The notes: generated by a model not told the origin, from the letters alone. 14,454 nt of DNA from Candidatus Nanohaloarchaea archaeon (GCA_030631505.1 DAOVKX010000019.1:1-14454), one strand, 5' to 3'; positions 3 through 14,062 are shown, numbered from the stretch's first letter. Translations and numbers: made by a program.

Positions 3-452
3 AAAATGGAAGCCATTCAAAAAGGCAAATACAATAAAACAAAAGTTCTTGAGGAGGCAAGGGAAGCTTTAACCGTGACTCTGGAGAAGTTTAAGAGGGA
101 AGAGAAGGAAATCGGTGAGGATCTTATAGGTTCTCTGGACGAAACAGAACGGATTGTGAACCAGTTAGGCAAATGCCCGAAATGCAAGAGTGGGACTTTA
201 ACCATAATGCGATCCAGAAACGGTGGGCGGTTCGTAGGGTGCAGTTCATACCCGAAATGCAACAACATTTACCCACTCCCAAGGCAGGGGATGATAAAAA
301 AGACAGATAAAATCTGCGAGAAATGCAACACTCCAATAGTAATCATAATAAACAAGGGCAGGAGGCCGTGGAACCTTTGTTTAGACCCTAAATGCCCTAC
401 GAAAAAGGACTGGAATACAAAGAAGACTAAAAAGAAAATCAAAAAATCTTAA
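3..452 (+). CDS. C-terminal end of a DNA topoisomerase (type IA, Topo I/III-like); two C4 zinc-ribbon repeats; 5' partial (frame open to window start)
   Basis: Two copies of the topoisomerase zinc-ribbon pattern C-x2-C ... G-x-F-x-GCS-x-YP-x-C: CPKCKSG...RFVGCSSYPKC and CEKCNTP...WNLCLDPKC. Lys-rich tail. No in-frame stop between position 3 and the first Met at 6, so the gene most likely begins upstream of the window. Confidence 0.65.
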   Translation, partial: KMEAIQKGKYNKTKVLEEAREALTVTLEKFKREEKEIGEDLIGSLDETERIVNQLGKCPKCKSGTLTIMRSRNGGRFVGCSSYPKCNNIYPLPRQGMIKKTDKICEKCNTPIVIIINKGRRPWNLCLDPKCPTKKDWNTKKTKKKIKKS

Positions 453-1134
453 ACCTTTTTTCAACATCAAACAAGCCTTTATTCCTAATCTCAAATTCTG
501 TTGAGATACCATCTGGCCTGAACCTGTGTTTTATTACTATTGCCTTTCTTTTGTTTCCGCTGAGTTTTTCCAGTTTTATTATGGTCTTGCATCCGTATCT
601 TGGTATGTCCCTACCGACCATTTGTATTTCACCAGAGTCAAAGTCAGAGTAAACCTGATTTGTTACAAGGACAGGTATCTTCTTTTCTCTTGCAATTTTT
701 GAAAGTATTGACAACTGGTTGCTTAGCTTGTAATTGGCTTTCTGGTAATCGTCTTCATGCAGAGCCAGCCGGTAAAAACTCACGAGGGAATCAACCACGA
801 TTAAGCCAACTGTGTCGTTTTTTACTAATTTTTTGTCCAGAGTTTCTATTACGTTGTTCTGCTCTTCAAAGGTTTTGGGCTCTATGAGAATGACTTTTTC
901 CAGCAAATCCTTGTCTTCTCCTGCAATCTGGAAGAATCTCTCGACAGAGAAACCTCCTTCAGAATCTATAAATATAACTTTTTTCCCTGTTCTTATGCAT
1001 GAAACTGCTGCCTGGATTGTGAAATTTGTTTTTCCACTTGCCCAGGAGCCATAAACATTAGTTACAACTCCGGGCTCTAATCCTCCACCAATCAGGGAAT
1101 CCACGCTTTTTGCTGCCAGAGAGATTTTTTCCAT
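439..1134 (-). CDS. radB: DNA repair/recombination protein RadB (archaeal RecA/RadA paralog)
   Basis: 231 aa, the size of RadB, with no N-terminal HhH domain as RadA would have. Walker A GSWASGKT and Walker B-like LIVVDS. RecA-fold ATPase core. Convergent 14-nt overlap with the topoisomerase 3' end. Confidence 0.8.
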   Translation of the reverse strand: MEKISLAAKSVDSLIGGGLEPGVVTNVYGSWASGKTNFTIQAAVSCIRTGKKVIFIDSEGGFSVERFFQIAGEDKDLLEKVILIEPKTFEEQNNVIETLDKKLVKNDTVGLIVVDSLVSFYRLALHEDDYQKANYKLSNQLSILSKIAREKKIPVLVTNQVYSDFDSGEIQMVGRDIPRYGCKTIIKLEKLSGNKRKAIVIKHRFRPDGISTEFEIRNKGLFDVEKRFKIF

Positions 1135-1168
1135 AAATTAAGTTTGCAGTGCAAATATTTAATCTTGA

Positions 1169-1387
1169 TTACAGCGCTTTTTTCAGTTTCAACTCTGTAC
1201 CGTCCTTTAGTTTTATTGTTACATCAATTTCTTCAACCTGATCCAAAGATTTTAATGCGTTTTCCAAGCCGGACAAAACAGAATCAATTTTCCCTTCAAC
1301 AGTATCTGCTAGTTCTGTCTGCTTGCTCAAAAAGTTTTCTTTCTTCTTTTTTAGCTCTTCTTTAACATCAATAATTTTATCCGACAT
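1169..1387 (-). CDS. hypothetical small coiled-coil protein (72 aa)
   Basis: Complete ORF, charged and Leu-rich heptad-like sequence (EELKKKKENFLSKQTELADTVEGKIDSVLSGLENALKSL). Start codon preceded by GGTGAT SD inside a duplicated 52-bp cassette. No recognisable domain. Confidence 0.5.
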   Translation of the reverse strand: MSDKIIDVKEELKKKKENFLSKQTELADTVEGKIDSVLSGLENALKSLDQVEEIDVTIKLKDGTELKLKKAL

Positions 1388-1436
1388 ATAATCACCATTT
1401 AATATTAGTGTTCGTAGATTTAAGTTTTTTTGTTAA
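1385..1436 (-). repeat. 52-bp perfect direct repeat, copy 1 (stop codon of the upstream gene, then promoter/SD, then the ATG of the 72-aa gene)
   Basis: catataatcaccatttaatattagtgttcgtagatttaagtttttttgttaa is identical to 1853-1904. On the minus strand it reads TAA, then A-rich, then cttaaat (TATA-like), then atattaaat, then GGTGAT, then tat, then ATG. Confidence 0.9.
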
Positions 1437-1855
1437 CCCATTAAATATTCCGAAGTTTCATTAAGCGTTATTTTTCCCAATTCAGAGAAAAAGTTCCTTA
1501 TTTGCTCTTTTTCTTTAATGGCAAGGTCTTTACCTTCATATGCTTTTGTTAACGCATTTTTTATTTTCTCTAAATGCTTATAAGGGTTTTCTTCAATAAC
1601 CTTTTGGCGTGTTAAGTTACATAACACTTCGGTATTATATCTATGATTAGTAAAAATTTGCGGGTTGCCACACAACCCATTATTCATTAAATCTTTAGCT
1701 CTTTTAGTGCTATCAATCTGAGCAATTCCTCTTTCTATCAGGTCATAGGGTTCTTTATTTTTATAACTCTCTTTGCAAAAAGCTTTAACCAATTCGTCAG
1801 ATAAGAAACCAACATTTAATGAGTCTGTAATTTCAAGGGCAGCGTGTCTGTTCAT
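1433..1855 (-). CDS. hypothetical protein (140 aa)
   Basis: Complete ORF. Its TAA stop lies in repeat copy 1 and its ATG in repeat copy 2, so it is flanked on both sides by the identical 52-bp cassette. No recognisable motifs. Confidence 0.5.
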   Translation of the reverse strand: MNRHAALEITDSLNVGFLSDELVKAFCKESYKNKEPYDLIERGIAQIDSTKRAKDLMNNGLCGNPQIFTNHRYNTEVLCNLTRQKVIEENPYKHLEKIKNALTKAYEGKDLAIKEKEQIRNFFSELGKITLNETSEYLMG

Positions 1856-1904
1856 ATAATCACCATTTAATATTAGTGTTCGTAGATTTAAGTTTTTTTG
1901 TTAA
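1853..1904 (-). repeat. 52-bp perfect direct repeat, copy 2 (stop of the 103-aa gene, then promoter/SD, then the ATG of the 140-aa gene)
   Basis: Identical to 1385-1436 (read directly from the sequence). Confidence 0.9.
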
Positions 1905-2212
1905 AAATTACCTTTCATTCCATTATCAATAAATTCTTTCATTTGCTTAATTTTCCATTCTATATAGTCTTTATTATCTTCATTGTTTGTATTGAGAGGA
2001 TTCAAGTCTCTGTTTGATTCCTGGACTGGAAGATGAAGACCGGATTTATAAATAATTTCTGAAAATTTATCTTCAGAAGCGCGCTCTACATTATCGGATG
2101 TGACAATACCGAACATCACATTGTTAAATTCATCATCATCAAGGATTTTCAGGTACAAAACGTGTCCTTCATGTTCATCCAAAAAATAGCTTTTGCCCAC
2201 CTGCAATTTCAT
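1901..2212 (-). CDS. hypothetical protein (103 aa)
   Basis: Complete ORF, acidic, no recognisable motifs. Divergent from the 2296 ORF across a TATA-rich spacer (tttatataaacaaaacatatataaag). Confidence 0.45.
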   Translation of the reverse strand: MKLQVGKSYFLDEHEGHVLYLKILDDDEFNNVMFGIVTSDNVERASEDKFSEIIYKSGLHLPVQESNRDLNPLNTNNEDNKDYIEWKIKQMKEFIDNGMKGNF

Positions 2213-2261
2213 ATTATTATTCCTTGTTTAAACCATTAAAAATCTTAGTTAGTGTTTATAT

Positions 2262-2285
2262 AAACAAAACATATATAAAGTTTGA
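2262..2285. promoter_or_regulatory. Divergent promoter region with two TATA-like boxes (tttatataaa / atatataaag)
   Basis: AT-rich spacer between minus-strand gene start 2212 and plus-strand gene start 2296. Archaeal TATA-box-like octamers. Confidence 0.35.
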
Positions 2286-2295
2286 CTTTTAAAGA

Positions 2296-2616
2296 TTGCC
2301 TATGAGGGCTATATTAATTACCTTTTCAGCAAAGTCTTCAAAATTTAATTCAGCTTATGAGAGAAACCAATTTTACAGGGAGCTTTATGGCTGGAAACAA
2401 ATAATAATAAGGAATTACAGAAGGTATGAATATCAAAAAAGTGGACTGATGGATGAGATACCCCACATAAAAGTTGACAAGAGCGTTTTCATTGTTGCAA
2501 GAAATAATTTGGAACGATTAAGAATGTTTTTTAACAAGTGGGATGATAAAACGAGATTCAGTTCCTTTGAAATAAAGATAAATAAAGAGGAAGCCAAAAC
2601 AATAAAAGTGGAGTGA
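2296..2616 (+). CDS. hypothetical small protein (106 aa) translationally coupled to cdc48
   Basis: Complete ORF ending 4 nt before the cdc48 ATG. Alternating beta/alpha pattern (AILITFS, FYRELYGW, QIIIRNY, KSVFIVA). No confident family assignment. Confidence 0.5.
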   Translation: MPMRAILITFSAKSSKFNSAYERNQFYRELYGWKQIIIRNYRRYEYQKSGLMDEIPHIKVDKSVFIVARNNLERLRMFFNKWDDKTRFSSFEIKINKEEAKTIKVE

Positions 2617-2620
2617 TGTT

Positions 2621-4879
2621 ATGTCTGAGAACGAAATTCAGTTAAGGGTGGGGGAGATACCCTCGAATGCGCAGAGCGATATTGGTGTTGGGATAGTGCG
2701 GCTTGATGTTAAGATACTGCATGAGCTTGGTTTACGGGAAGGCGATGCTGTAGAGATTGAGGGCAAAAGGAAAACAGGAGCCATTGCATTAAGGGCGTAT
2801 CCTAATGATGTTGGACTGAATGTTGTGAGAATGGACGGTTATATGAGAAGAAACTCCGGAACGAGCATTGGCGAGAAAATTACAATTAAGCCGCTGGAAC
2901 TCAAAGAGGCAAAAAAAGTTACAGTTGCTCCTGCTGAGAAAGGCATAATGGTTCAGGTTCCCGGGGAGCAGGTAAAACGGGCGCTGATGGGGCGGATTGT
3001 TGCAAAGGGCGATATAGTTGTGCCTGCAACAAGAAGAAAAGAAGCTTTCGGGGATTTCTTCGGGATAGATTTTGATGAGTTATTCGGGGGTTTTGGCTTT
3101 GGCGAGACCCGGTTTATAATTGCGGGCACGGCGCCCAAGGAAATATGCAAGATTACTGACCTGACAGAGTTTATTGTCAAGCCAAAAGCAGTGGATATAA
3201 AGGAAGACCAGCTTATGTCCACGGGTATAACTTACGAGGACATAGGTGGTTTGCATGAAGAGGTGAAGAAAGTCAGGGAGATGATTGAACTTCCTTTAAA
3301 GCACCCTGAACTGTTTAGCCGGCTGGGCATTGACCCGCCAAAAGGAGTTCTTCTGCATGGGACGCCTGGGACAGGCAAGACCCTGATTGCAAAGGCAGTT
3401 GCAAATGAGTCCGGGGCAAGTTTCTATTCAATTGCAGGGCCTGAAGTTATGAGCAAATGGTATGGCCAGTCAGAGGAAAATCTAAGGAACATTTTCAAGG
3501 AAGCGCAGGAAAATGCGCCCTCAATAATCTTTATAGATGAGATTGATGCGCTGGCTCCGAAACGGGAGAATGTTACCGGGGAAGTTGAAAGAAGAGTTGT
3601 CGCGCAACTGCTTGCTGTGATGGATGGCCTGCAGGCAAGAGGTGATGTGATAGTCATTGCCGCAACAAACATACCAAATTCAATAGACCCTGCACTGAGG
3701 CGACCGGGAAGGTTTGACCGGGAAATAGAGATAAATGTTCCGAGCAGGAGAGGAAGGAAGGAAATTTTGCAGATACATATGAGAGGGATGCCTCTTGGAA
3801 AAGATGTTGATGTTGACGGTCTTGCTGAAATAACCCACGGGTTTGTCGGCGCTGATTTGTCAGCTCTGGCAAGGGAAGCTGCAATGAGCTCTTTGAGGAG
3901 GATTCTGCCGGATATAAACCTGAAGGATGAGAAGATACCGCGGGAAGTTCTGGAAAAACTGGAAGTGACAAACAAGGATTTTAAGAACGCTCTTTTGGTT
4001 GTTGAGCCGTCTGCGATGAGAGAGGTTCTTGTTGAAATTCCAAAACTTAACTGGGATGACATCGGTGGACTTGACGAAGCCAAGCAGTACCTGAAGGAAA
4101 TGGTTGAATGGCCATTGAAACATCCTGATGCATTTAAGCGGATGGGCATAACGCCGCCCAAGGGCATTCTGCTTTACGGCCTGCCAGGGACAGGCAAGAC
4201 TTTACTTGCGAGAGCTGTTGCAAATGAAAGCAAATCCAATTTTATAGCTATAACCGGCTCCGAGGTGTTTTCCAAGTGGGTCGGCGAATCAGAAAAAAGA
4301 GTAAGGGAGGTTTTCAAGAGAGCAAGGCAGGTAGCGCCTTCAATTGTGTTTATCGATGAGATTGATGCTGTGGCACCTAAAAGAGGACACTCTCATGATT
4401 CAGGGTCTGCAGACCGTGTGGTTAACCAGATTTTGAGTGAGCTGGATGGATTAACCGGTTTGAGTGGTGTTGTTGTCATTGCGGCGACAAACCGGCCTGA
4501 CATAATAGACCCGTCGCTTTTGAGACCCGGCCGATTTGACAGGCATCTTTATGTTCCTGTTCCTGACAAAAAGACAAGGAAGAAAATATTTGAAATCTAC
4601 ACCAAAGATATGCCATTGGATAAAGGTGTAAACATAGACAACCTTGTTTCAAAAACAGAAAATTATGTCGGGGCAGACATCGAATCTGTCTGCAGGGAGG
4701 CGGCAATAAATGCTTTAAGGAAGGATATAAAATCAAAGAAAGTTACAAAAAAGGATTTTGAAAACTCCCTTGAACGAGTAAAGCCTTCTATAAGAGGAAA
4801 CGACGTTGAGGAATACAAAAAAAGAGTCAGCACAACAAAAGAGCTGTCAGTTTCCAATGACATTGATTATGTCGGGTGA
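2621..4879 (+). CDS. cdc48: Cdc48/VCP/p97-like double AAA+ ATPase
   Basis: 752 aa. N-domain (double-psi barrel-like). D1 Walker A GTPGTGKT and Walker [11 protein letters not shown]2 Walker A GLPGTGKT and Walker [13 protein letters not shown] regions. SD GGAGTGAT upstream of the ATG. Confidence 0.95.
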
Positions 4880-4910
4880 GATTGAGGGTTTTTGGTAATG
4901 TTGTTATGCC

Positions 4911-4932
4911 TAATCCTCAAAAAAGAGGATTA
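4911..4932 (+). terminator. Hairpin (8-bp stem taatcctc/gaggatta, 6-nt A loop) downstream of the cdc48 stop, after an oligo-T run at 4889-4893
   Basis: Perfect inverted repeat read from the sequence. The oligo-T immediately after the stop is a typical archaeal termination signal. Confidence 0.35.
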
Positions 4933-5009
4933 AAAAGATAATAATTGGGTCGTTAAGTGTGTTGTAAAGTTAACGGGGCTTTATAAATAAAAAATTATAA
5001 AATATCTTT

Positions 5010-5780
5010 ATGAAAAAATCTAATTATAAAATGAAAATTAAAGCCTTGAGAATAGATGAAGAAAAGAGAAGAAGAATAGCAACCAATTCTTCAGAATTAA
5101 GGAAACGAGCTTATGAAGAAGCTATTTCATGGAAAGGTGGAACACTTTCAGATAAAAAATCCTATCTTATGTATGAATATTCTAATTATAAAATAGTTCT
5201 TAAAAAACCTGGAAAAGAGTCTCCTATAGAATATAATCGATGTACGTATAAAGATAGAACAAAGGGAAATAATCCTAACGACATGACTCCGACGCTTATA
5301 AAAGATGGAGAAATTCATGAAAATAAATTAGGATTTGATAATATCTTTGAGATGATTCATTCAATAAAAGATGAACGGGCACTTGAAATATTAGGAACTA
5401 TACTTTTTAGGATGGCTTATATGTTAGAATATAAAAATAATGAAGAGGGAAAGGTAAGATTAAATATCTCTGAAGAGGGCTTAAAAATCTTAGAAGATAA
5501 ATGCCCACTAGTCAAAGATATCCCGATAAAAGTTTTTTTAGCAATGTTGGAAATAATTTCTCTCAATGAAGATGTTAAATATCACACTTTGGGTTATAAT
5601 GACAATTTTAAGAATGGAACCGGGAAAAGAAATAATCTTCTCACATATGTAAGACTTATTGCAGTTCTTTTAGAGAGAGAATCATTTTTCTCATTTGCTG
5701 GTTCTTTTGCAAGACCGCCTGTTGGAATTTCATCTATATCAAATTCAAAGGCATTTAAAATATTTCCAGATTTAGTTTAA
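5010..5780 (+). CDS. hypothetical protein (256 aa); candidate restriction endonuclease partner of the adjacent C5-MTase
   Basis: Complete ORF in very low-GC DNA. Convergent with the MTase, with 6 nt between stop codons. No recognisable catalytic motif, so the R-M role is inferred from context only. Confidence 0.5.
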   Translation: MKKSNYKMKIKALRIDEEKRRRIATNSSELRKRAYEEAISWKGGTLSDKKSYLMYEYSNYKIVLKKPGKESPIEYNRCTYKDRTKGNNPNDMTPTLIKDGEIHENKLGFDNIFEMIHSIKDERALEILGTILFRMAYMLEYKNNEEGKVRLNISEEGLKILEDKCPLVKDIPIKVFLAMLEIISLNEDVKYHTLGYNDNFKNGTGKRNNLLTYVRLIAVLLERESFFSFAGSFARPPVGISSISNSKAFKIFPDLV

Positions 5781-5786
5781 TAAAAA

Positions 5787-7016
5787 TTAATCTAATTTTA
5801 AAGAAAGTTCTTTTCCAATTCTTTCTATAACTCCAATAACTAAAGCATTTCCCATAAGAAAAGCTCTTTTTATATTTGTGCAACCTTTTGTATGGTTGTC
5901 GGGAAACATATTTAATCTTTCAAGTTCTAAAGGCATTAATCTTCTCAATCTCCCATTTTCAGTTTTTACTACATGCTTAAATCTTGAAGGTGTAGAACCA
6001 CCTTCTCCAGTAATTATTGTTCTGGAAGGCTTATCTAATGAATCGGGGAAAATCATTGCACCTTCATTATAATTATAATAAAAATTTCGACTTTTGTTAA
6101 ATCGTTTTTCTCTTTTTGCACCCTTAAGATATTCCCATTTTTCATATTCTCCATTCACAAAAAATTCTTCAGGTATTTTTTCTTCAGGTAATACAATATC
6201 TCCCAAAGTAATTCTCTCTCCATCATAATCTGGAAAAACTTTTGCAGTAAATATCTTTCTATCAATTATAATACCACAATTTTGAAATGGACTAAATTTT
6301 CCTTTTTTGTTGAAATTATTTGTAACTTCAATTAAGTTTCCATCTATGTTGAATTTTTTTTTGAAAAAGATTTTATTTATATTTATGCCAAATGCTTTTG
6401 CTAAAGTTCCATTATTAAAAATCCATTTCTCAGAATTATCTTTTTTAATTTCTTTATATATTGATGATTTTTTATGGTATCCCATAATAAAAATTCTTCT
6501 TCTTCTTTGAGGCATCCCGTAATCTGCTGCATTAATTATTCTCCATTCCACAATATAACCTAAATTAGATAATGATGATAAAATAATTGCAAAATCTCTC
6601 CCCCTCTGACTTGCTGGAGAACTCAATAATCTATCAACATTTTCTAATAAAATAAATTCTGGTTTATTTTTATTATCTCTTAAAATTCTATGGATTTCCC
6701 ACCATAAAACTCCTTTTTTTCCAGTAATTCCTTTTGATTGACTTAAACATTTAGCCACAGAATAATCTTGACATGGAAAACCACCAACTAAAATATTGTG
6801 TTCGGGGAGTTCATCAATAGAAACTTTTGCGATATCCTTATTTGAGTGGTTTTCTTCTCCAAATCTTTTTATATAAATTTCAGAGGCTTCTTGACTTTTT
6901 GTTTTTGGCTCCCATTGATTACTCCAAACCATTTCAAATTTTTCAGAAGCATTGGTTAATCCAATTCGAAACCCACCAACTCCGGCGAATAATTCAACAA
7001 TTTTAATTTTTTCCAT
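5787..7016 (-). CDS. DNA (cytosine-5)-methyltransferase (Dcm/M.HhaI-type)
   Basis: Motif I FAGVGGF, motif IV GFPCQDYS (PCQ), motif VI LLENV, motif VIII QRRRRIF, motif X GNALVIG. 409 aa. Confidence 0.9.
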   Translation of the reverse strand: MEKIKIVELFAGVGGFRIGLTNASEKFEMVWSNQWEPKTKSQEASEIYIKRFGEENHSNKDIAKVSIDELPEHNILVGGFPCQDYSVAKCLSQSKGITGKKGVLWWEIHRILRDNKNKPEFILLENVDRLLSSPASQRGRDFAIILSSLSNLGYIVEWRIINAADYGMPQRRRRIFIMGYHKKSSIYKEIKKDNSEKWIFNNGTLAKAFGININKIFFKKKFNIDGNLIEVTNNFNKKGKFSPFQNCGIIIDRKIFTAKVFPDYDGERITLGDIVLPEEKIPEEFFVNGEYEKWEYLKGAKREKRFNKSRNFYYNYNEGAMIFPDSLDKPSRTIITGEGGSTPSRFKHVVKTENGRLRRLMPLELERLNMFPDNHTKGCTNIKRAFLMGNALVIGVIERIGKELSLKLD

Positions 7017-7022
7017 TTTTTT

Positions 7023-7172
7023 CTACCTTTTTTTATTAAATATAGTTTTTAGTTTATCCCAATAGGGGCTTTTGCATTTAGGACAAACTATAGGTTTATC
7101 GTTTCCATCTCTCGGTATCCAAGTATGTCCACATCTTGAGCATTTGTAACCTTTTAGCATTATTTCTGGCAT
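7023..7172 (-). CDS. 49-aa zinc-ribbon protein (CxxC-x13-CxxC) immediately upstream of the MTase; not in the supplied ORF track
   Basis: Manual translation of the minus strand gives MPEIMLKGYKCSRCGHTWIPRDGNDKPIVCPKCKSPYWDKLKTIFNKKR*. Its stop is 6 nt before the MTase ATG. Confidence 0.5.
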   Translation of the reverse strand: MPEIMLKGYKCSRCGHTWIPRDGNDKPIVCPKCKSPYWDKLKTIFNKKR

Positions 7173-7194
7173 ACAATAACTATGTACCCTTTAG

Positions 7195-7205
7195 TATATA
7201 AACTT
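7195..7205 (+). promoter_or_regulatory. TATA-like box (tatataaactt) in the divergent spacer between the zinc-ribbon gene and the plus-strand small ORF
   Basis: AT-rich octamer about 50 nt upstream of the ATG at 7249. Confidence 0.3.
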
Positions 7206-7248
7206 AAAGGGATTACTAATAAGCGACAACTTTAAGTGCAAAAGCATA

Positions 7249-7386
7249 ATGAAAGGAATTGAGATATACTACAATTTCATAACCAAGCATCAGGCAATTA
7301 AGAAATGCCTTTATGAGCTGGCTGTTTCTGAATTGAAATTAAATTCTGAGAATAAGTGGTTGGAATTGATTAAATTAGCGAAGTGA
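7249..7386 (+). CDS. possible small ORF (45 aa), MKGIEIYYNFITKHQAIKKCLYELAVSELKLNSENKWLELIKLAK
   Basis: First ATG in an open frame downstream of the TATA-like box. No SD and no homology recognised, so it may be non-coding. Confidence 0.25.
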   Translation: MKGIEIYYNFITKHQAIKKCLYELAVSELKLNSENKWLELIKLAK

Positions 7387-7476
7387 TGAAAGACATGATT
7401 AAGAAGTTCTTAAAAAATAAAGCTTAAATACTATTTTTACCAATTATATACTATAATAAGTTGAATGTGGTAATAA

Positions 7477-7656
7477 ATGGTAAAAATAGCCAAAAATAAC
7501 CGAATTACAATCCCTTCTGAAATAATGAATCTAAAAGGTTGGAGTGAAGGTACAGAGCTTATATTTGTTCCATTTAACCAAGATGCAAAAGACACACTGG
7601 AAAGAGAAACACCGATTGTTCTGAACGAAGTAATAAGGAAAGAGCGAGTTAAATGA
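7477..7656 (+). CDS. AbrB/SpoVT/MazE-family swapped-hairpin DNA-binding protein (59 aa), antitoxin/regulator-like
   Basis: MVKIAKNNRITIPSEIMNLKGWSEGTELIFVP matches the K-x-ITIP-x-EI-x-LG...G-x-L pattern of SpoVT_AbrB domains. The stop overlaps the next ATG (ATGA). Not in the ORF track because it is under 60 aa. Confidence 0.7.
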   Translation: MVKIAKNNRITIPSEIMNLKGWSEGTELIFVPFNQDAKDTLERETPIVLNEVIRKERVK

Positions 7657-7961
7657 TAGAAAAAAACGATAACTATTTAAACTTTAATGTTACACATAGT
7701 AGCATGGGAGAATTATTAAGTAGTCTAAAGGAGAAAGAAGAAATAAGTAATATTTGTAAAGAACGTTCGTTAAACATCATTTTATTAAAAAATTTATTTT
7801 TTTGGAGTGCACAAGGGTTTAATAATGTTGAGTTAGCAAGGAAATTAGGTGTTCATAGAGTTACAGTTCAAAGATACAGTAGCACATTAAAGAAAATGAA
7901 AGTAGAAGAGTATCATAAATTATTTAATTACATATCTAAAGGATTACGTAATGGGGTATAA
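7653..7961 (+). CDS. HTH DNA-binding protein with sigma-70 region-4-like helix-turn-helix (102 aa)
   Basis: LSSLKEKEEISNICKERSLNI....GFNNVELARKLGVHRVTVQRY resembles sigma70_r4 / LuxR-type HTHs. 4-nt ATGA overlap with the AbrB-like gene. Its stop is 2 nt before the next gene. Confidence 0.55.
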   Translation: MIEKNDNYLNFNVTHSSMGELLSSLKEKEEISNICKERSLNIILLKNLFFWSAQGFNNVELARKLGVHRVTVQRYSSTLKKMKVEEYHKLFNYISKGLRNGV

Positions 7962-7963
7962 AG

Positions 7964-9121
7964 ATGAAAAGCGAACTGAAACTTAAAAGCGGAAAAATTA
8001 TTAATTTACCATCAAGAATGTTTAGGAATAAAGATTTATCAGAAATGAATTTGGACTATGTAGAAAATAAGATATATTTCAACAAATATGATGAAAAAAA
8101 AGGATTTATCTCATTTAATAAAGAAGTTGAGAAAAATATGGCTATAATTAATTATGTGGATTGTTCTACTACTCCATTCTCAAAAGAAGAACTGGTTTCT
8201 TCTATCAAAAAACAAATAGACACTAATAGTGATTTCATTATTTTGCCATACTTCAAGGATGAGAATGAATATGATTTAAACATAAAAATTGAATTGGCAG
8301 GTAAAATAAAAACCAGATATAATAAAGAAATAATATTGGAAATATCATATAAAGCAACACCGCAGATGATTAAGAAAGTTATTAAACAATCTGAAAACTT
8401 TGATATTTTAGCTGTATTTTATGGTGTGCATTATGGAAGATTTCCATCATTTAGACTATTATGTGAGAAAATTTTTCTCTTTAAACAAGTCACAAATGGT
8501 AAAGTTTTTTGTACTGGTGTCCCCCTTGTATTCTCAGGAGATGAATATTCAAAATATTCCTATCTATTCCCAATATGGTCTTTAGTTTGTGATGGGTGGG
8601 TAAAAAATTGGAAACGTGGCGGAGGTGCTAAAGAAATACGCTTGGTGGATTATGAAGATTATAGAAATAAGAATTTTATGGGGTGGTGTGAAACACATAA
8701 ACCTAATGATATAGTGGAGTCTGTAAATATGAGTGTTAAAGGGTTATTTGGAGATGGACACGCTATGAAACAAGTAAGAGAACAATACATAGGGATGCTT
8801 AGAGATGAAGTTTTAAATGAGGTTTATTCAATAACGCCTAAGAGTATTGGAACTTATTTGAGAGATAAACCAAGAATATATATTGCTCTAATTTTAGATT
8901 TATACAAACAGAAATTAATTATACAAAAAGTCCGTGAAGCTAATTGGGCAAAAACATATGCTGAAAATGACATACGATTATTGGAAAAGGAGCTATTTAA
9001 TTTTTTAAGCCCCTCTGAAATAGAAGAAAAAATAGAGAAGAATATTGTTACTCTCGTTTCAAAAGAACAGAAAGTTCCCATCTCTGTTTTGATTAACGAA
9101 GTTCAAAATTCTCGATTTTAA
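7964..9121 (+). CDS. hypothetical protein (385 aa), third gene of the AbrB-HTH operon
   Basis: Long uninterrupted ORF at ~23% GC. No Walker, DDE, HNH or PD-(D/E)xK motif that I can identify confidently. Confidence 0.55.
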   Translation: MKSELKLKSGKIINLPSRMFRNKDLSEMNLDYVENKIYFNKYDEKKGFISFNKEVEKNMAIINYVDCSTTPFSKEELVSSIKKQIDTNSDFIILPYFKDENEYDLNIKIELAGKIKTRYNKEIILEISYKATPQMIKKVIKQSENFDILAVFYGVHYGRFPSFRLLCEKIFLFKQVTNGKVFCTGVPLVFSGDEYSKYSYLFPIWSLVCDGWVKNWKRGGGAKEIRLVDYEDYRNKNFMGWCETHKPNDIVESVNMSVKGLFGDGHAMKQVREQYIGMLRDEVLNEVYSITPKSIGTYLRDKPRIYIALILDLYKQKLIIQKVREANWAKTYAENDIRLLEKELFNFLSPSEIEEKIEKNIVTLVSKEQKVPISVLINEVQNSRF

Positions 9122-9196
9122 TTTTTTAAGCCCCTTTAAGTTTACAACAAACCAATATTTATAATTTTTATATACCCGAAATCAAATAGTATCTTT

Positions 9197-10987
9197 ATGT
9201 CGAGTGAACTTCTCTTGTTTGATATTGGCCTGATAATCCTTGTTTCCACAGTTCTGGCGTATTTTGCGCATCTGTTCAGACAGCCGCTTGTTCCGGCTTA
9301 CACTATAGCGGGATTGATTCTTGGCCCTGTCGGGTTTGGGTGGATAACAAATACAGAGATAATTACAATACTGTCCGAATTAGGGATTGCTTTTCTGCTG
9401 TTTATTGTGGGTATGGAGATTGATTTTCAGAGGTTAAAGGATGTCAAGCTTGTATCGTTTTTCGGCGGCATGACACAGATAGTTTTAATTTTGGGATTGA
9501 CATTTTTCACTGCGCTTTATTTTGGGTTCAGCCAGATACAGGCGCTTTACCTTGGTCTGATTCTGACATTCAGCAGCACTATGGTTGTTGTAAAGTATTT
9601 TTCTGATGAGAACATGCTTGATACATTGCATGGCAAGATAGTTCTTGGGTTTCTGCTTGTCCAGGATATTTTTGCGATTGTTGCCCTGTCAATTCTAATG
9701 AACCTGAGCGAGTTCAGTGTTGCTCATTTACTGCCGACTTTTATCGGCGGATTCGGGCTTTTTATTGCCGCTATTGTAGCCAAGAAGTATATATATCCTG
9801 TCTTGTTCGACTCTGTTGTTAAAACCCCGGAGTTGCTGTACCTGTCATCCTTGTCTGTATGTTTTATTTTTGCGGGCATTGCTCATGCTGCAGGGTACTC
9901 TATTGCAATAGGCGCGTTTATTGCGGGTTTGAGTTTGGCGGCGTATCCTTATGACCTTGAAATAATAAACAGGGTGGGGTCCCTGAGAGATTTTTTTGCA
10001 ACTTTGTTTTTTGTTTCACTTGGAATGCAGATAACCAGTTTTAGCATCCTTACTGTTTACATGAAGCCCCTTATCGCTCTTGCTTTGATTGCTTTATTAA
10101 TCAAACCGCTCATAATTTTCACTACATCAACGTTCTTTGGATACGAGCAAAGAACTTCTTTCTTTGCTTCAACCAGTCTCGGTCAAATCAGTGAGTTTTC
10201 ACTGATAATTGCATTGCAGGGGCTGCTGATTGGCGCGATTCCGATGGAAATATTTTCGATGACTGTGGTGCTGGCAGTTTTCACAATGTCCTTGTCCACT
10301 TATGTTATCAGGTTCAGAAATGCGCTGTTTTCATTTTTCTCCAAATATTTAATTATTTTCAGGAAAGTCAACATACTTAACAGACAGGTGGAGCTGGGCC
10401 ATGAGCCGGAGAAAAAGGGCTTGGAGAACCATATAATTCTATGGGGGGCGCACAGGATTGGTTCCGGCATTGTGGACGCGGCTCAAAAATTGAAGAAAAA
10501 TATAATCGTTGTTGATTATAATCCTGACATAATAAAAACATTGATGAACGAAAAAGTTCCCTGCATTTATGGAAATCTTGACAACCTGGAGACTCTGGAC
10601 AGGGTTAATGTTGACAGGGCGAAGCTGATTATATCCACAGTGCCCAATTTTGAGTATAATATGTTTCTTTTAGAACAGGCAAAGGTGCTAAACAAAGAAG
10701 TTCCTGTTATCCTTACGGCCAATGCGCTTGAACAGGCGTTGTTCTTTTACAATAAAGGAGCTGATTATGTCATACTGCCGAAAAGACTTAGCAGGGACAA
10801 GGTAAAAGATTATGTTTACAGTTTGTTTAACAAGCACAAAAGGACCGAGACACAAATCAGGAAAATAAAGGAAGGCCATGTAAAGGAACTGAAAGCGGAT
10901 CTTGAAGAGCAGATTCTGGACAGATATGAACCACGGCCTTTAAAATTGGATATAACAGGAACAAAAGAAAAAAGAAATGAAAAGTGA
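9197..10987 (+). CDS. kefB: Monovalent cation:proton antiporter-2 (CPA2, KefB/KefC-like) with C-terminal RCK/TrkA-N domain
   Basis: About 12 hydrophobic helices (Na+/H+ exchanger family pattern). C-terminal Rossmann ILWGAHRIGSGIV (GxGxxG) followed by VVDYNPD. Confidence 0.85.
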   Translation: MSSELLLFDIGLIILVSTVLAYFAHLFRQPLVPAYTIAGLILGPVGFGWITNTEIITILSELGIAFLLFIVGMEIDFQRLKDVKLVSFFGGMTQIVLILGLTFFTALYFGFSQIQALYLGLILTFSSTMVVVKYFSDENMLDTLHGKIVLGFLLVQDIFAIVALSILMNLSEFSVAHLLPTFIGGFGLFIAAIVAKKYIYPVLFDSVVKTPELLYLSSLSVCFIFAGIAHAAGYSIAIGAFIAGLSLAAYPYDLEIINRVGSLRDFFATLFFVSLGMQITSFSILTVYMKPLIALALIALLIKPLIIFTTSTFFGYEQRTSFFASTSLGQISEFSLIIALQGLLIGAIPMEIFSMTVVLAVFTMSLSTYVIRFRNALFSFFSKYLIIFRKVNILNRQVELGHEPEKKGLENHIILWGAHRIGSGIVDAAQKLKKNIIVVDYNPDIIKTLMNEKVPCIYGNLDNLETLDRVNVDRAKLIISTVPNFEYNMFLLEQAKVLNKEVPVILTANALEQALFFYNKGADYVILPKRLSRDKVKDYVYSLFNKHKRTETQIRKIKEGHVKELKADLEEQILDRYEPRPLKLDITGTKEKRNEK

Positions 10988-10989
10988 GA

Positions 10990-11424
10990 TTACTCAACTT
11001 CAAGGTTCTTTGCTTTTTTGACTTCTTTTTTCGGGAGTATTATCGTTAATATGCCGTTCCTGTACTTTGCCCGTGCATCGTCAACAAGAACTTCTGTTGG
11101 CAGTGTTAAAGTCCGGTAGAAGTGCCTCTCCCGCCTTTCTCTTCTGTAAAACGCTTTTCCTTCTTCATGTTTTTCTTCCTTGGCTTCTGCGGAAATCTCT
11201 ATTCTGTTGGGCGTTGCTTTTATGTTAATATCGCTTTTTTCAACACCAGGTATATCTACTGTAACAATAATATCTACGTTTGTTTCTCCTATGTCTGCAG
11301 GAAGCCGGTTTGTCAAATTGGGGAATGGCACTGCTTCAAATGAGTTCCTCATATGGTCTATATACCGTTCCATATCCCACAAACTATCCCATACTCTTCT
11401 TTTTCTTTCAGCCATTTTGCTCAC
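10990..11424 (-). CDS. hsp20: HSP20/alpha-crystallin small heat-shock protein
   Basis: Alpha-crystallin domain (VDIIVTVDIPGVEKSDINIK...NGILTIILPK). 144 aa. Confidence 0.9.
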   Translation of the reverse strand: MSKMAERKRRVWDSLWDMERYIDHMRNSFEAVPFPNLTNRLPADIGETNVDIIVTVDIPGVEKSDINIKATPNRIEISAEAKEEKHEEGKAFYRRERRERHFYRTLTLPTEVLVDDARAKYRNGILTIILPKKEVKKAKNLEVE

Positions 11425-11482
11425 TATAGTAACATTATAAAAGGATTTATATATTGTTTTCTATTTATTATCTGTGTGATAA

Positions 11483-12064
11483 ATGTTTAATCAACATATC
11501 GAATTATTAGGAGATATTAAACTTCAAACCATTTCTGAACGAACAAGAAGAGACCTTCTTTTATACTTATGTCACATTTCTGAAGATGTAAGACCTCCTA
11601 CCGATACTCTTGAGTCTTATCTTGACCTTGAGCGCTTTACTACGAGATTTCAAAGGATGTTCTACTTGTTGGATAAAAAAATATTTGAAACACATTGTTT
11701 AACTAGCGGTTACAAATTTATGCACCATTTGAGGGGGCCAACTGATAGGGATTTGTTGAATGATATAGTCTCATTATATCACCATGATCTTGTCGGTACA
11801 GAATATGGTAAAAATTATATTGAAGCTATAGATTTAGAGGGAGAGTTAAGAACTAGTTTAGGAAAAGATTTATTTAATGAACTTGTTGATTCTGTAAAAA
11901 GATACAACGAAATGAAAATAGCTGATTTAATTAAAGAATCTGTGGAAGTATGGCATGAAGAACATCCTGAAATTAAAAGAGGGATCGAGGAGATGGCTGA
12001 AAAATGGGGTTTCACACGCGAAAAATTTGAGAAACTTATGCGCCAATATCACGAAAACTCTTAA
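11483..12064 (+). CDS. hypothetical protein (193 aa)
   Basis: Complete ORF, divergent from hsp20. Its 3' end overlaps the nog1 3' end by 29 nt (convergent). No recognisable motifs. Confidence 0.5.
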   Translation: MFNQHIELLGDIKLQTISERTRRDLLLYLCHISEDVRPPTDTLESYLDLERFTTRFQRMFYLLDKKIFETHCLTSGYKFMHHLRGPTDRDLLNDIVSLYHHDLVGTEYGKNYIEAIDLEGELRTSLGKDLFNELVDSVKRYNEMKIADLIKESVEVWHEEHPEIKRGIEEMAEKWGFTREKFEKLMRQYHENS

Positions 12065-13052
12065 TTTTTTCTTCGTTTAAATAAGCACCCTTTAACAGGA
12101 ATTTCTTTAATTTATCAAATCCCTCTTTTTTTGCACAGGACAATTCAAAGAATTTTTCTTTTTTTATCTTCTTTTTTAACTCCCGTAATCTTTCTTTATC
12201 AGTTATGTCAATTTTATTTATACAAACTATTATTGGAATGTCAAAACTCTCTTTTATCTCGTTGTACAGATTTAACTGTTCATGCGCTGAGTAGCCGCAG
12301 GTTTCGGACAAATCGAAAACAAACAGGATTTTATCTGCAAGGTATTTTAATGCCAGGACTGCTTTCAGTTCAATTTTGTTTCTGAGTTTTAAATCCCTGT
12401 CCAGAATTCCTGGGGCATCAATGAACTGCAGTAAGTCCTCTATGTATCCGAGCATGAGATTTTGCGTTGTGAATGGATATGGCTGCACTTCAGGCAATGC
12501 GCCTGTAAGGTGCTTCAGGATGCTTGACTTGCCGATGTTTGGAAATCCCGCAATAACAATTGTTTCCATGTCTTTGACCTTTGCCAGATTCCTTAAGCTT
12601 CGCCTGCAGTCATCCAGAAATAAGAGGTCTGAGTTAATTTGTTTTAAGATTGAACTTACCCTGCCGTAATGCTCTTTTCGAATCCTTGCCATGTCTTTTA
12701 ACTGAGCACCTTTCAGTTTTCTCTTATATATTTCTGTTAATCTTCCTGTTTGGCCCATAGCCCAATTAACAGCGCCAAGTGACTTTTTCATCTGCTCTCT
12801 GTTGACAATCAGGCCAATCAGCTCATAATAAAAATTATCCAACCCGTTAATACTTGGCGTTCTTTCGAGAATTTTTTTAAGGTAGTCCTGGATAACATAA
12901 GTAGTTATTTCCACTCGCTTAAGCTCTTTTCTTCTTTTTTCCACTCTTTTGTCTTTAGCGCTGACATTCATAGCGCCCATCCGGGCTTTGCGGAATGCCT
13001 TATCCAGAATTTTCTTATACGACAAAATTTTAGGCATATTCGAAAACATCAT
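12036..13052 (-). CDS. nog1: NOG1-family GTP-binding protein (archaeal Nog1 homolog)
   Basis: N-terminal NOG1-type domain, then a G domain: G1 GFPNIGKSS, G2 YPFTT, G3 DAPG, G4 NKID. 338 aa. Confidence 0.85.
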   Translation of the reverse strand: MMFSNMPKILSYKKILDKAFRKARMGAMNVSAKDKRVEKRRKELKRVEITTYVIQDYLKKILERTPSINGLDNFYYELIGLIVNREQMKKSLGAVNWAMGQTGRLTEIYKRKLKGAQLKDMARIRKEHYGRVSSILKQINSDLLFLDDCRRSLRNLAKVKDMETIVIAGFPNIGKSSILKHLTGALPEVQPYPFTTQNLMLGYIEDLLQFIDAPGILDRDLKLRNKIELKAVLALKYLADKILFVFDLSETCGYSAHEQLNLYNEIKESFDIPIIVCINKIDITDKERLRELKKKIKKEKFFELSCAKKEGFDKLKKFLLKGAYLNEEKIKSFRDIGA

Positions 13053-13066
13053 AAATCACCGTTGAG
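13034..13066 (-). repeat. 33-bp perfect direct repeat, copy 1 (SD, ATG and first 6 codons of nog1)
   Basis: gcatattcgaaaacatcataaatcaccgttgag is identical to 13195-13227. Confidence 0.9.
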
Positions 13067-13194
13067 AATATATACTAAAAGACATAAACATTTGAGCAAG
13101 GCGTCTTTTCCATATATTGATGGATAGTGATTTATTGGTTCAGTTTGTTTATTCTTTCTGTGTCCCTCAATATTGAAGAATCTTTGATTCTGAA

Positions 13195-13227
13195 GCATAT
13201 TCGAAAACATCATAAATCACCGTTGAG
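13195..13227 (-). repeat. 33-bp perfect direct repeat, copy 2 (160 bp upstream of the nog1 start on the minus strand)
   Basis: Identical to 13034-13066. Provides an SD and an ATG for a 54-codon uORF. Confidence 0.9.
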
Positions 13228-13312
13228 CATGTCGAAACATTTTTGGAACATAAGCTTATTTTTATACATAAGTTTATAAACGAGTAAATGAAATGTTTTA
13301 TGGGGTGTTCGT

Positions 13313-14062
13313 GTGCTTTGGTTAATATTTCTGTTTGTTTTCTTTGTTATGCCCCTGCTTTTGTCAGCTGTAAGGGTTATATATGAGTATGAACGCGGTG
13401 TCAAGTTTACTTTAGGGAGGTTCTCAGGCACAATGGAACCGGGCCTGAGATTTATAATACCAATTATACAAACCATGACTAAAGTTGATGTGAGGATTAA
13501 GGCTATTGATGTTCCTGATCAGGATGCCATAACCAAGGATAATGTCTCCATAAAAGTAAATGCTGTGCTGTATTACAAAGTCTCGGATGTCAAGAAAGCA
13601 ATTATTGAGGTAGAACATTATGGTTATGCAGTTTCCCAACTGGCGCAAACCACAATGAGGGATGTTGTTGGCGAGGTCAGTTTAGACCAACTGCTTAGCA
13701 GCAGGGACTCTGTTTCAAAAAGGATAAAGGAGATTGTAGATAAGGCAACAGACCCCTGGGGGATAAAAGTGGATTCTGTTGAGCTAAAGCATGTTGAACT
13801 TCCTGAAGGATTAAAGAGGGTTATAGGCAAAGAAGCAGAGGCAGAACGTGAAAAAAGGGCTGTGATAATCAAAGCAGGTGGAGAGGTTATAGCATCAACA
13901 AATCTTGCAAAGGCGGCCAAAACACTGGCTACATCGCCGGGAGCACTTCATCTTAGAACCCTGAATACGTTAAATGACCTGAGCAGTGACCAGAGCAATA
14001 CTGTTGTGTTTGCAGTTCCATTAGAAATCCTTAAGGCATTTGAGACCATCAAGAAAAAGTAA
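13313..14062 (+). CDS. SPFH/band-7 (stomatin/prohibitin-like) membrane protein
   Basis: N-terminal TM helix (LWLIFLFVFFVMPLLLSAV), SPFH core (VIYEYERGVKFTLGRF ... VPDQDAITKDNVSIKVNAVLYYKV), coiled-coil EAEAEREKRA. The frame opens only at 13292, so the start is probably GTG at 13313; the alternative is ATG at 13349. Confidence 0.85.
   Translation: MLWLIFLFVFFVMPLLLSAVRVIYEYERGVKFTLGRFSGTMEPGLRFIIPIIQTMTKVDVRIKAIDVPDQDAITKDNVSIKVNAVLYYKVSDVKKAIIEVEHYGYAVSQLAQTTMRDVVGEVSLDQLLSSRDSVSKRIKEIVDKATDPWGIKVDSVELKHVELPEGLKRVIGKEAEAEREKRAVIIKAGGEVIASTNLAKAAKTLATSPGALHLRTLNTLNDLSSDQSNTVVFAVPLEILKAFETIKKK

Follow-up and report, generated by a model that had tools for sequence, protein, structure and literature searches.

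The window analysed here is the whole 14,454-nt stretch of DNA from Candidatus Nanohaloarchaea archaeon (GCA_030631505.1, DAOVKX010000019.1:1-14454). The contig encodes RadB, a Cdc48-type AAA ATPase, a NOG1-type GTPase and a topoisomerase zinc ribbon and, further on, AlaRS, L12, L10, L1 and L11. Three small genes precede radB on the minus strand, where the order is a 103-aa gene, a 52-nt sequence designated R, a 140-aa gene, a second copy of R, a 72-aa gene, a 34-nt spacer and radB (Table 1). The GC content of the 140-aa segment (0.325) is close to that of its small-gene neighbours (0.32-0.34), and the core genes stand at 0.39-0.46.

Table 1 Features of the radB-proximal small-gene locus. Positions are counted from the first base of the window; offsets in the last column are relative to the ATG.
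Feature	Position	Strand	Description
radB	439..1134	-	Conserved anchor downstream of the small-gene trio; own TATA-like box at -29
72-aa gene (downstream flank)	1169..1387	-	No family match; single-member cluster at 90% identity
R, copy 1	1385..1436	-	Last base of the 140-aa ORF, TAA (1435..1433), 45-nt spacer, ATG of the 72-aa gene (1387..1385)
140-aa gene (cargo)	1433..1855	-	Present in the window and in ENA scaffold_918; absent from JAGLTX010000211.1
R, copy 2	1853..1904	-	Last base of the 103-aa ORF, TAA (1903..1901), 45-nt spacer, ATG of the 140-aa gene (1855..1853)
103-aa gene (upstream flank)	1901..2212	-	ORFan; self-match only among 5.8 billion proteins
Variable unit, 468 bp	1437..1904	.	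One R and the non-repeated part of the 140-aa gene; register within R arbitrary
Predicted TATA-like box, CTTAAATC	1417..1424 (copy 1); 1885-1892 (copy 2)	-	-37..-30; predicted from sequence
Shine-Dalgarno, GGTGAT	1391..1396 (copy 1); 1859-1864 (copy 2)	-	-9..-4

A repeat search of the window returned R as a direct repeat whose two copies agree at every position (52/52) and lie 468 nt apart, start to start. Its minus-strand reading is TTAACAAAAAAACTTAAATCTACGAACACTAATATTAAATGGTGATTATATG. The 5' limit falls one base ahead of the TAA stop of the upstream gene and the 3' limit is the G of the ATG of the downstream gene; beyond these limits identity is lost abruptly at both ends, one copy being bordered by ATTT and AACAG and the other by TGGG and TCGGA. 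The preliminary description of this DNA had reported a perfect 52-bp stop-to-start duplicate, and this was borne out to the base, with respect to identity, copy number and coordinates. Exactly two copies were found in the window by a pattern search allowing three mismatches, while none of 200 dinucleotide-preserving shuffles contained any match to R. Extending the survey by another 7.6 kb of the same contig, so that 22 kb of its 32.6 kb were covered, revealed no further R-like copies. The weak resemblance to R previously claimed for positions 2213-2262 proved to be at chance level, with a local alignment score of 17 that was reached or exceeded by 39% of 2000 shuffles, and a degenerate third R upstream of the 103-aa gene was dropped as a candidate on the same figures.

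Each copy of R holds the same putative expression signals. A GGTGAT Shine-Dalgarno motif at -9..-4 and a TTAAAT box at -36..-31 lie where the preliminary description had placed them, and the A7 tract just upstream of the TATA-like box could be a BRE-like element. Motifs of the GGTGA/GTGAT type occur no more than 18 nt from the start in 10 of the 26 genes on the contig. Two classes of gene start were recognised in the 22 kb examined. In one, represented by radB, a 256-aa gene, the Na/H antiporter gene and a 159-aa gene, a TTTATAWA box near -30 is found without a Shine-Dalgarno motif, an arrangement that fits leaderless genes. In the other, represented by AlaRS and by genes of 57 and 193 aa, a TATA-like box at -37 to -40 is combined with GTGAT or GGTGA at about -7 to -9. 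The layout of R, with CTTAAATC at -37 and GGTGAT at -9, falls in the second class, and its box departs from the strong TTTATAWA boxes seen elsewhere on the contig. Judged from these motifs, R is plausibly a promoter joined to a ribosome-binding site, from which transcription of the gene behind each copy may be driven.

Folding predictions gave R no secondary structure beyond that of shuffled sequences, either as RNA (-3.3 kcal/mol, z -1.17) or as single-stranded DNA of both strands (z 0.4 to 0.7), and no match to R was found in Rfam at gathering or permissive thresholds. Together, the lack of structure and of an Rfam match argue against a processing site, a riboswitch-like leader or an attC-type hairpin. 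The alternative offered in the preliminary description, that the repeat might equally be a conserved processing or regulatory site, is therefore unsupported.

The protein encoded between the two copies of R was predicted with low confidence to be all-alpha, with five helices (AlphaFold model, pLDDT 60). Sequence searches of Pfam, PHROGs, PADLOC, NCBIfam and PDB returned nothing above threshold for the small proteins, and in a word-indexed search the 103-aa and 140-aa proteins matched themselves only. The 140-aa protein is nevertheless a near-ORFan rather than a complete one: a HMMER search of 1.84 billion representatives recovered one distant relative, P0125, with 28% identity over the full length (E 3.6e-7), whose source is a different sample from the same cold seep. 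In IMG/VR the 140-aa protein had no relative. Compared by BLASTP with the 72-aa, 103-aa and 104-aa proteins, it gave no match at E <= 10, and the other pairs gave nothing or chance matches of 4-7 residues. The gene for P0125 (155 aa) lies at L017:241-3094 (ENA ERZ23498719, SAMN18200507) in a tight co-directional cluster with genes for a 90-aa protein and for a 492-aa protein with a HExxH motif, and with a dCTP deaminase-like gene; this context might hint at the role of the 140-aa family.

The closest RadB among 5.8 billion proteins is 57% identical to that of the window, and the named close relatives come from DPANN, Nanohaloarchaea and Aenigmarchaeota MAGs; at such a distance there are no true sister genomes for comparison. 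Four radB relatives, encoding RadB proteins 53-57% identical to that of the window, have no small co-directional genes upstream of radB. Two of the four have a divergent 216-aa gene next to radB on that side, and another has a KaiC-like ATPase gene. A RadB-based scan of genome contigs for synteny returned only a bacterial RecA-like gene, 26% identical. The small-gene cluster is a lineage-specific, plastic spot.

Two other assemblies of the locus were recovered through exact-protein look-ups. ENA scaffold_918 (32,586 bp; ERZ23498525, BioSample SAMN18200499) has the long form seen in the window. The NCBI contig JAGLTX010000211.1 (13,206 bp; GCA_023135055.1) corresponds by BLASTN to the window minus exactly 468 bp, namely one R and the 140-aa gene. 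Two BLASTN blocks define this difference, window positions 1015-1436 matching positions 1-422 of the JAGLTX010000211.1 locus and window positions 1853-13671 matching positions 371-12189, and the 52 nt by which the blocks overlap on the shorter contig are its single R. The alternative allele has one intact R with the intervening DNA gone and the flanks otherwise matching, as expected of an indel bounded by direct repeats, and in its annotation the 72-aa and 103-aa genes adjoin under consecutive locus tags (KAS87_05320 and KAS87_05325). Outside the indel, the short-form contig and the window differ by two SNPs in 11.8 kb. The check for cassette polymorphism proposed in the preliminary description thus gave a positive answer, in the form of a second, otherwise almost identical assembly without exactly the 140-aa gene and one copy of R. 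The short form likewise supports the earlier reading, in which the repeat stems from a recent duplication or recombination event and the small gene travelled with expression signals of its own.

The SNPs are informative in their own right. At position 6230, in the methyltransferase gene, an A is private to the short-form contig and both long-form assemblies have C, whereas at position 12931, in the NOG1-type gene, which is C or A, the long-form assemblies disagree with each other. More than one haplotype of the archaeon was therefore assembled. The MAG RS_11.bin.18, the ENA scaffold and the Logan contigs considered below have one cold-seep sediment sample in common (RS_11 = SAMN18200499 = SRR13892601), and since the MAG and the ENA scaffold share this sample, the long and short forms derive from one and the same set of reads. 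The MAG GCA_023135055.1 is labelled Candidatus Omnitrophica, yet its contig is archaeal in content (RadB, Cdc48, NOG1 and archaeal-type L10 and L12); either the contig was probably mis-binned or the MAG mislabelled.

The pipelines behind these assemblies bear on whether either form could be an artefact. JAGLTX is bin RS_11.bin.18, a MAG of poor quality, 65.6% complete and 18.4% contaminated, which the bin name places in sample RS_11, and the project assembly was made with MEGAHIT at k from 21 to 141 and followed by MetaWRAP reassembly (PMC9357000). The name of the ENA scaffold has the format STUDY_SAMPLE_METAG-scaffold_N, the scheme of a metaSPAdes pipeline (PMC9259500), from which we infer that scaffold_918 was built by a metaSPAdes-style pipeline. 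At k above 52, any junction that runs from one unique flank through R into another, that of the 103-aa and 72-aa genes included, should need spanning reads. The largest default k is 55 in metaSPAdes and 55 or 77 in SPAdes.

Logan contigs are built at k=31, and every 31-mer in them is distinct by construction (PMC12424806). One Logan contig of SRR13892601, covering window positions 1875-3659, terminates with exactly the first 30 nt of R, and a second, covering positions 1-1414, opens with exactly the last 30 nt. Ends of 30 nt correspond to the k-1 overlap at nodes with two predecessors and two successors, so R is a true repeat in the reads, branched at both ends. At k=31 the graph is shorter-sighted than the 52-nt repeat, and a population with the long form alone looks the same in it as a mixture of forms. 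The long form is not the invention of one assembler. The preliminary description had considered that the duplicate might be an assembly artefact; R is instead found in two assemblies and as a branch at both ends in the read graph. On the strength of assemblies from differing pipelines, we think it likely that the long and short forms are both present in the population.

We favour, as the probable explanation, a strain-level indel produced by recombination or slippage between the copies of R, or by the reverse process of single-crossover insertion. Two perfect direct copies 468 bp apart would be a substrate for homologous recombination or replication slippage. A crossover between them would excise one R together with the 140-aa gene, precise to the base, as a circle of 468 bp, and the 72-aa gene would retain an intact R after the deletion. 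By the reverse route, a circle composed of R and the 140-aa gene could enter at a resident R through a Campbell-type single crossover, which would add a gene together with its own expression signals. The event may have run in the direction of loss or of gain. That the two copies have not diverged at a single position is suggestive of a recent duplication. Most likely, a DPANN-like archaeon of the cold seep is genuinely polymorphic here for the presence of one gene, with direct repeats as the borders of the variable segment. The evidence at hand points to an ordinary mechanism, recombination between direct repeats, and makes the locus a further example of an already known kind of event.

The main competing account is that only the long form exists, in which a duplicated spacer has become fixed as the two copies of R, and that the short form of the MAG contig arose when the assembly collapsed across the repeat. 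The short form is indeed known from one assembly alone, which came from an 18.4%-contaminated bin after binning and reassembly, and the k=31 graph, in which k is smaller than 52, fits the long form alone as well as it fits a mixture. Yet the upper k values used by MEGAHIT (59 to 141) exceed 52, and by inference the junction of the 103-aa and 72-aa genes across R should have needed spanning reads. The short-form contig also has its private SNP at 6230, as expected for another haplotype, and its deletion is base-precise with one intact R kept. We consider a collapse unlikely on these grounds. The converse proposal is that the long form is chimeric: the assemblers would have threaded into the chromosome a 140-aa segment that resides on another replicon sharing R (such as a circle, plasmid or virus of the same host). 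The k=31 graph is equally well satisfied by a chromosome with a single R between the 103-aa and 72-aa genes and a separate circle of R and the 140-aa gene. We nevertheless consider this proposal very improbable: the complete order of three genes and two repeats occurs in two assemblies that differ by a SNP, for which k above 52 should again demand reads across both junctions; the GC content of the 140-aa segment is like that of its neighbours; and searches of phage, plasmid and IMG/VR collections returned nothing for the segment.

R might also be an att-like or attC-like site for site-specific recombination, with the 140-aa gene as a cassette moved by an integrase encoded elsewhere. A single ORF between identical sites, excised precisely with one site, and a small ORFan cargo typical of chromosomal integron cassettes would agree with this. 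It is very improbable all the same, given that folding as RNA or as single-stranded DNA of either strand yields neither a hairpin nor an imperfect palindrome in R (z from -1.2 to +0.7), that its plus-strand ends GTTAACC and GTTAAAA both fail to fit the GTTRRRY core, that the gene calls of the 22 kb include no tyrosine recombinase, and that R spans exactly stop to start and resembles ordinary expression signals. Alternatively, R could be a regulatory or RNA-processing element common to both genes and serving to co-regulate them, in which case selection or gene conversion, and no recent recombination, would have kept the copies identical. The plausible promoter and Shine-Dalgarno signals in R speak for such a role, but identity at 52 of 52 positions, spacer positions included, in DNA of 21% GC exceeds what selection on short motifs would keep; R has neither structure nor an Rfam match, and the exact 468-bp indel would be left unexplained. 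We attach hardly any weight to this account.

Two other candidates were rejected. A transposable element with a target-site duplication does not describe the insert, which consists of one helical 140-aa ORF with no family match and no transposase, and whose ends, AACAGACACG... and ...ATTTAATGGG, do not match as terminal inverted repeats. Target-site duplications are, moreover, usually far shorter than 52 nt. A tandem duplication of a gene with its upstream region was discarded because the genes that follow the two copies of R are not paralogues by BLASTP.

The indel between copies of R can be set against several known systems. When homologous recombination or slippage deletes DNA between direct repeats, one repeat is kept and the intervening DNA is lost; the identical, closely spaced copies of R are of this kind and the product expected is exactly the short-form contig. 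Such deletion covers loss only, and does not account for two unrelated genes sharing an identical stop-to-start spacer. Phage morons are single genes with their own expression signals, usually a promoter and a terminator, lodged between two other genes. The 140-aa gene resembles them as an accessory gene with a promoter-like signal between two genes, absent from a near-identical assembly, but the term moron applies to phage genomes, and long perfect direct repeats do not border such genes.

Integrons are now reported in Archaea too (PMC9668308). Their cassettes are small, mostly ORFan genes, bounded by sites and gained or lost as units, as here, whereas R lacks a hairpin-forming imperfect palindrome and a GTTRRRY core, and there is no integrase within 22 kb.

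The closest analogue of R is the PeSL mobile regulatory cassette. PeSLs of T4-type phages are intergenic promoter/Shine-Dalgarno modules that reach the ATG and flank ORFans (Arbiol, Comeau et al. 2010, PMC2839356; PMC4122927); recombination between them explains indels between near-identical phages, and mini-circles of an ORF plus the motif measure about 400 bp (PMC2839356). R likewise runs from the end of one ORF to the next ATG, flanks an ORFan and bounds an indel between near-identical assemblies, and the 468-bp unit is close in size to the PeSL circles, although it is known from assemblies and no circle was observed. In contrast to PeSLs, R has no stem-loop terminator, and its two copies in 22 kb compare with dozens clustered in hyperplastic regions. 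On an archaeal chromosome, any promoter in R would also be of the TATA/BRE type and not sigma-70. By analogy R may be likened to a PeSL, but we do not class it as one, because it has no stem-loop and no multi-copy distribution.

The distribution of R beyond this locus was examined with its 20-nt core, which had no match in a set of one genome per GTDB species and none in IMG/VR, collections that do not include the source genome. A single match in a JGI metagenome contig was discarded as chance, as it lies inside a bacterial glycosyltransferase gene. The 1.1-kb ORFan region had no DNA match in phage or plasmid collections. The preliminary description had considered that the motif might be a ubiquitous element of this organism; within the reach of these searches it is not, R being unrepeated elsewhere in the 22 kb and its core absent from the GTDB-species and IMG/VR sets. 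It is rather doubtful that R belongs to a genome-wide family of promoter/RBS spacers that serve as portable homology patches, with ORFans moving as small circles in an archaeal chromosomal counterpart of PeSLs. A repeat-flanked 125-nt insert upstream of the NOG1-type gene, described below, is a weaker hint in the same direction. Further copies of R, or 468-bp circles, would bear on whether archaeal chromosomes use portable regulatory spacers as T4-type phages do.

If confirmed, the polymorphism would be a base-resolved case of an uncultured archaeon with a reduced genome gaining or losing one orphan gene together with ready-made expression signals in one sediment population. In practical terms, MAGs built from one set of reads can disagree at repeat-bounded sites.

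Other parts of the window have repeats of their own. A second direct repeat occurs on the minus strand at 13034-13069 and 13195-13230, exact over 33 nt and 97% identical over 36 nt, with its copies 161 nt apart. It covers the GGTGAT Shine-Dalgarno motif, the ATG and the first six or so codons of the NOG1-type GTPase gene, all of which are thereby present twice. Its upstream copy opens an uncalled 54-aa ORF, and the pair is present in all assemblies. The geometry is like that of the 140-aa gene between its copies of R, an insert lying between repeats that bear the start signals of the downstream gene. The 125-nt insert holds an element of about 105 nt (window ~13070-13180, minus strand) that recurs at about 80% identity at L002:18385-18492 (minus strand), 6.8 kb away and upstream of the 57-aa gene. 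The two copies of this element have in common a 19-nt exact core, AATCACTATCCATCAATAT, and two conserved stems; neither Rfam nor IMG/VR returned a match, and the element may represent either a small RNA or a repeat dispersed among intergenic regions.

At the opposite edge of the window (positions 1-3), inside the topoisomerase zinc-ribbon ORF (6..452), the Logan contig stops exactly at base 1, and coordinate arithmetic puts the ends of the ENA and NCBI contigs about 3 nt beyond. Contig ends shared in this way near window base 1 suggest another repeat or a strain branch point. Between these two edges, an imperfect 37-nt inverted repeat (4957-4993 and 9116-9152; 31 of 37 positions matching, more than in any of 20 block shuffles) delimits a low-GC island of 4.1 kb at 5010-9121, with 25-33% GC against 41-48% outside. 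The island encodes a C5 cytosine methyltransferase, an HTH protein and three ORFans, and may be a mobile restriction-modification or defence-type island.
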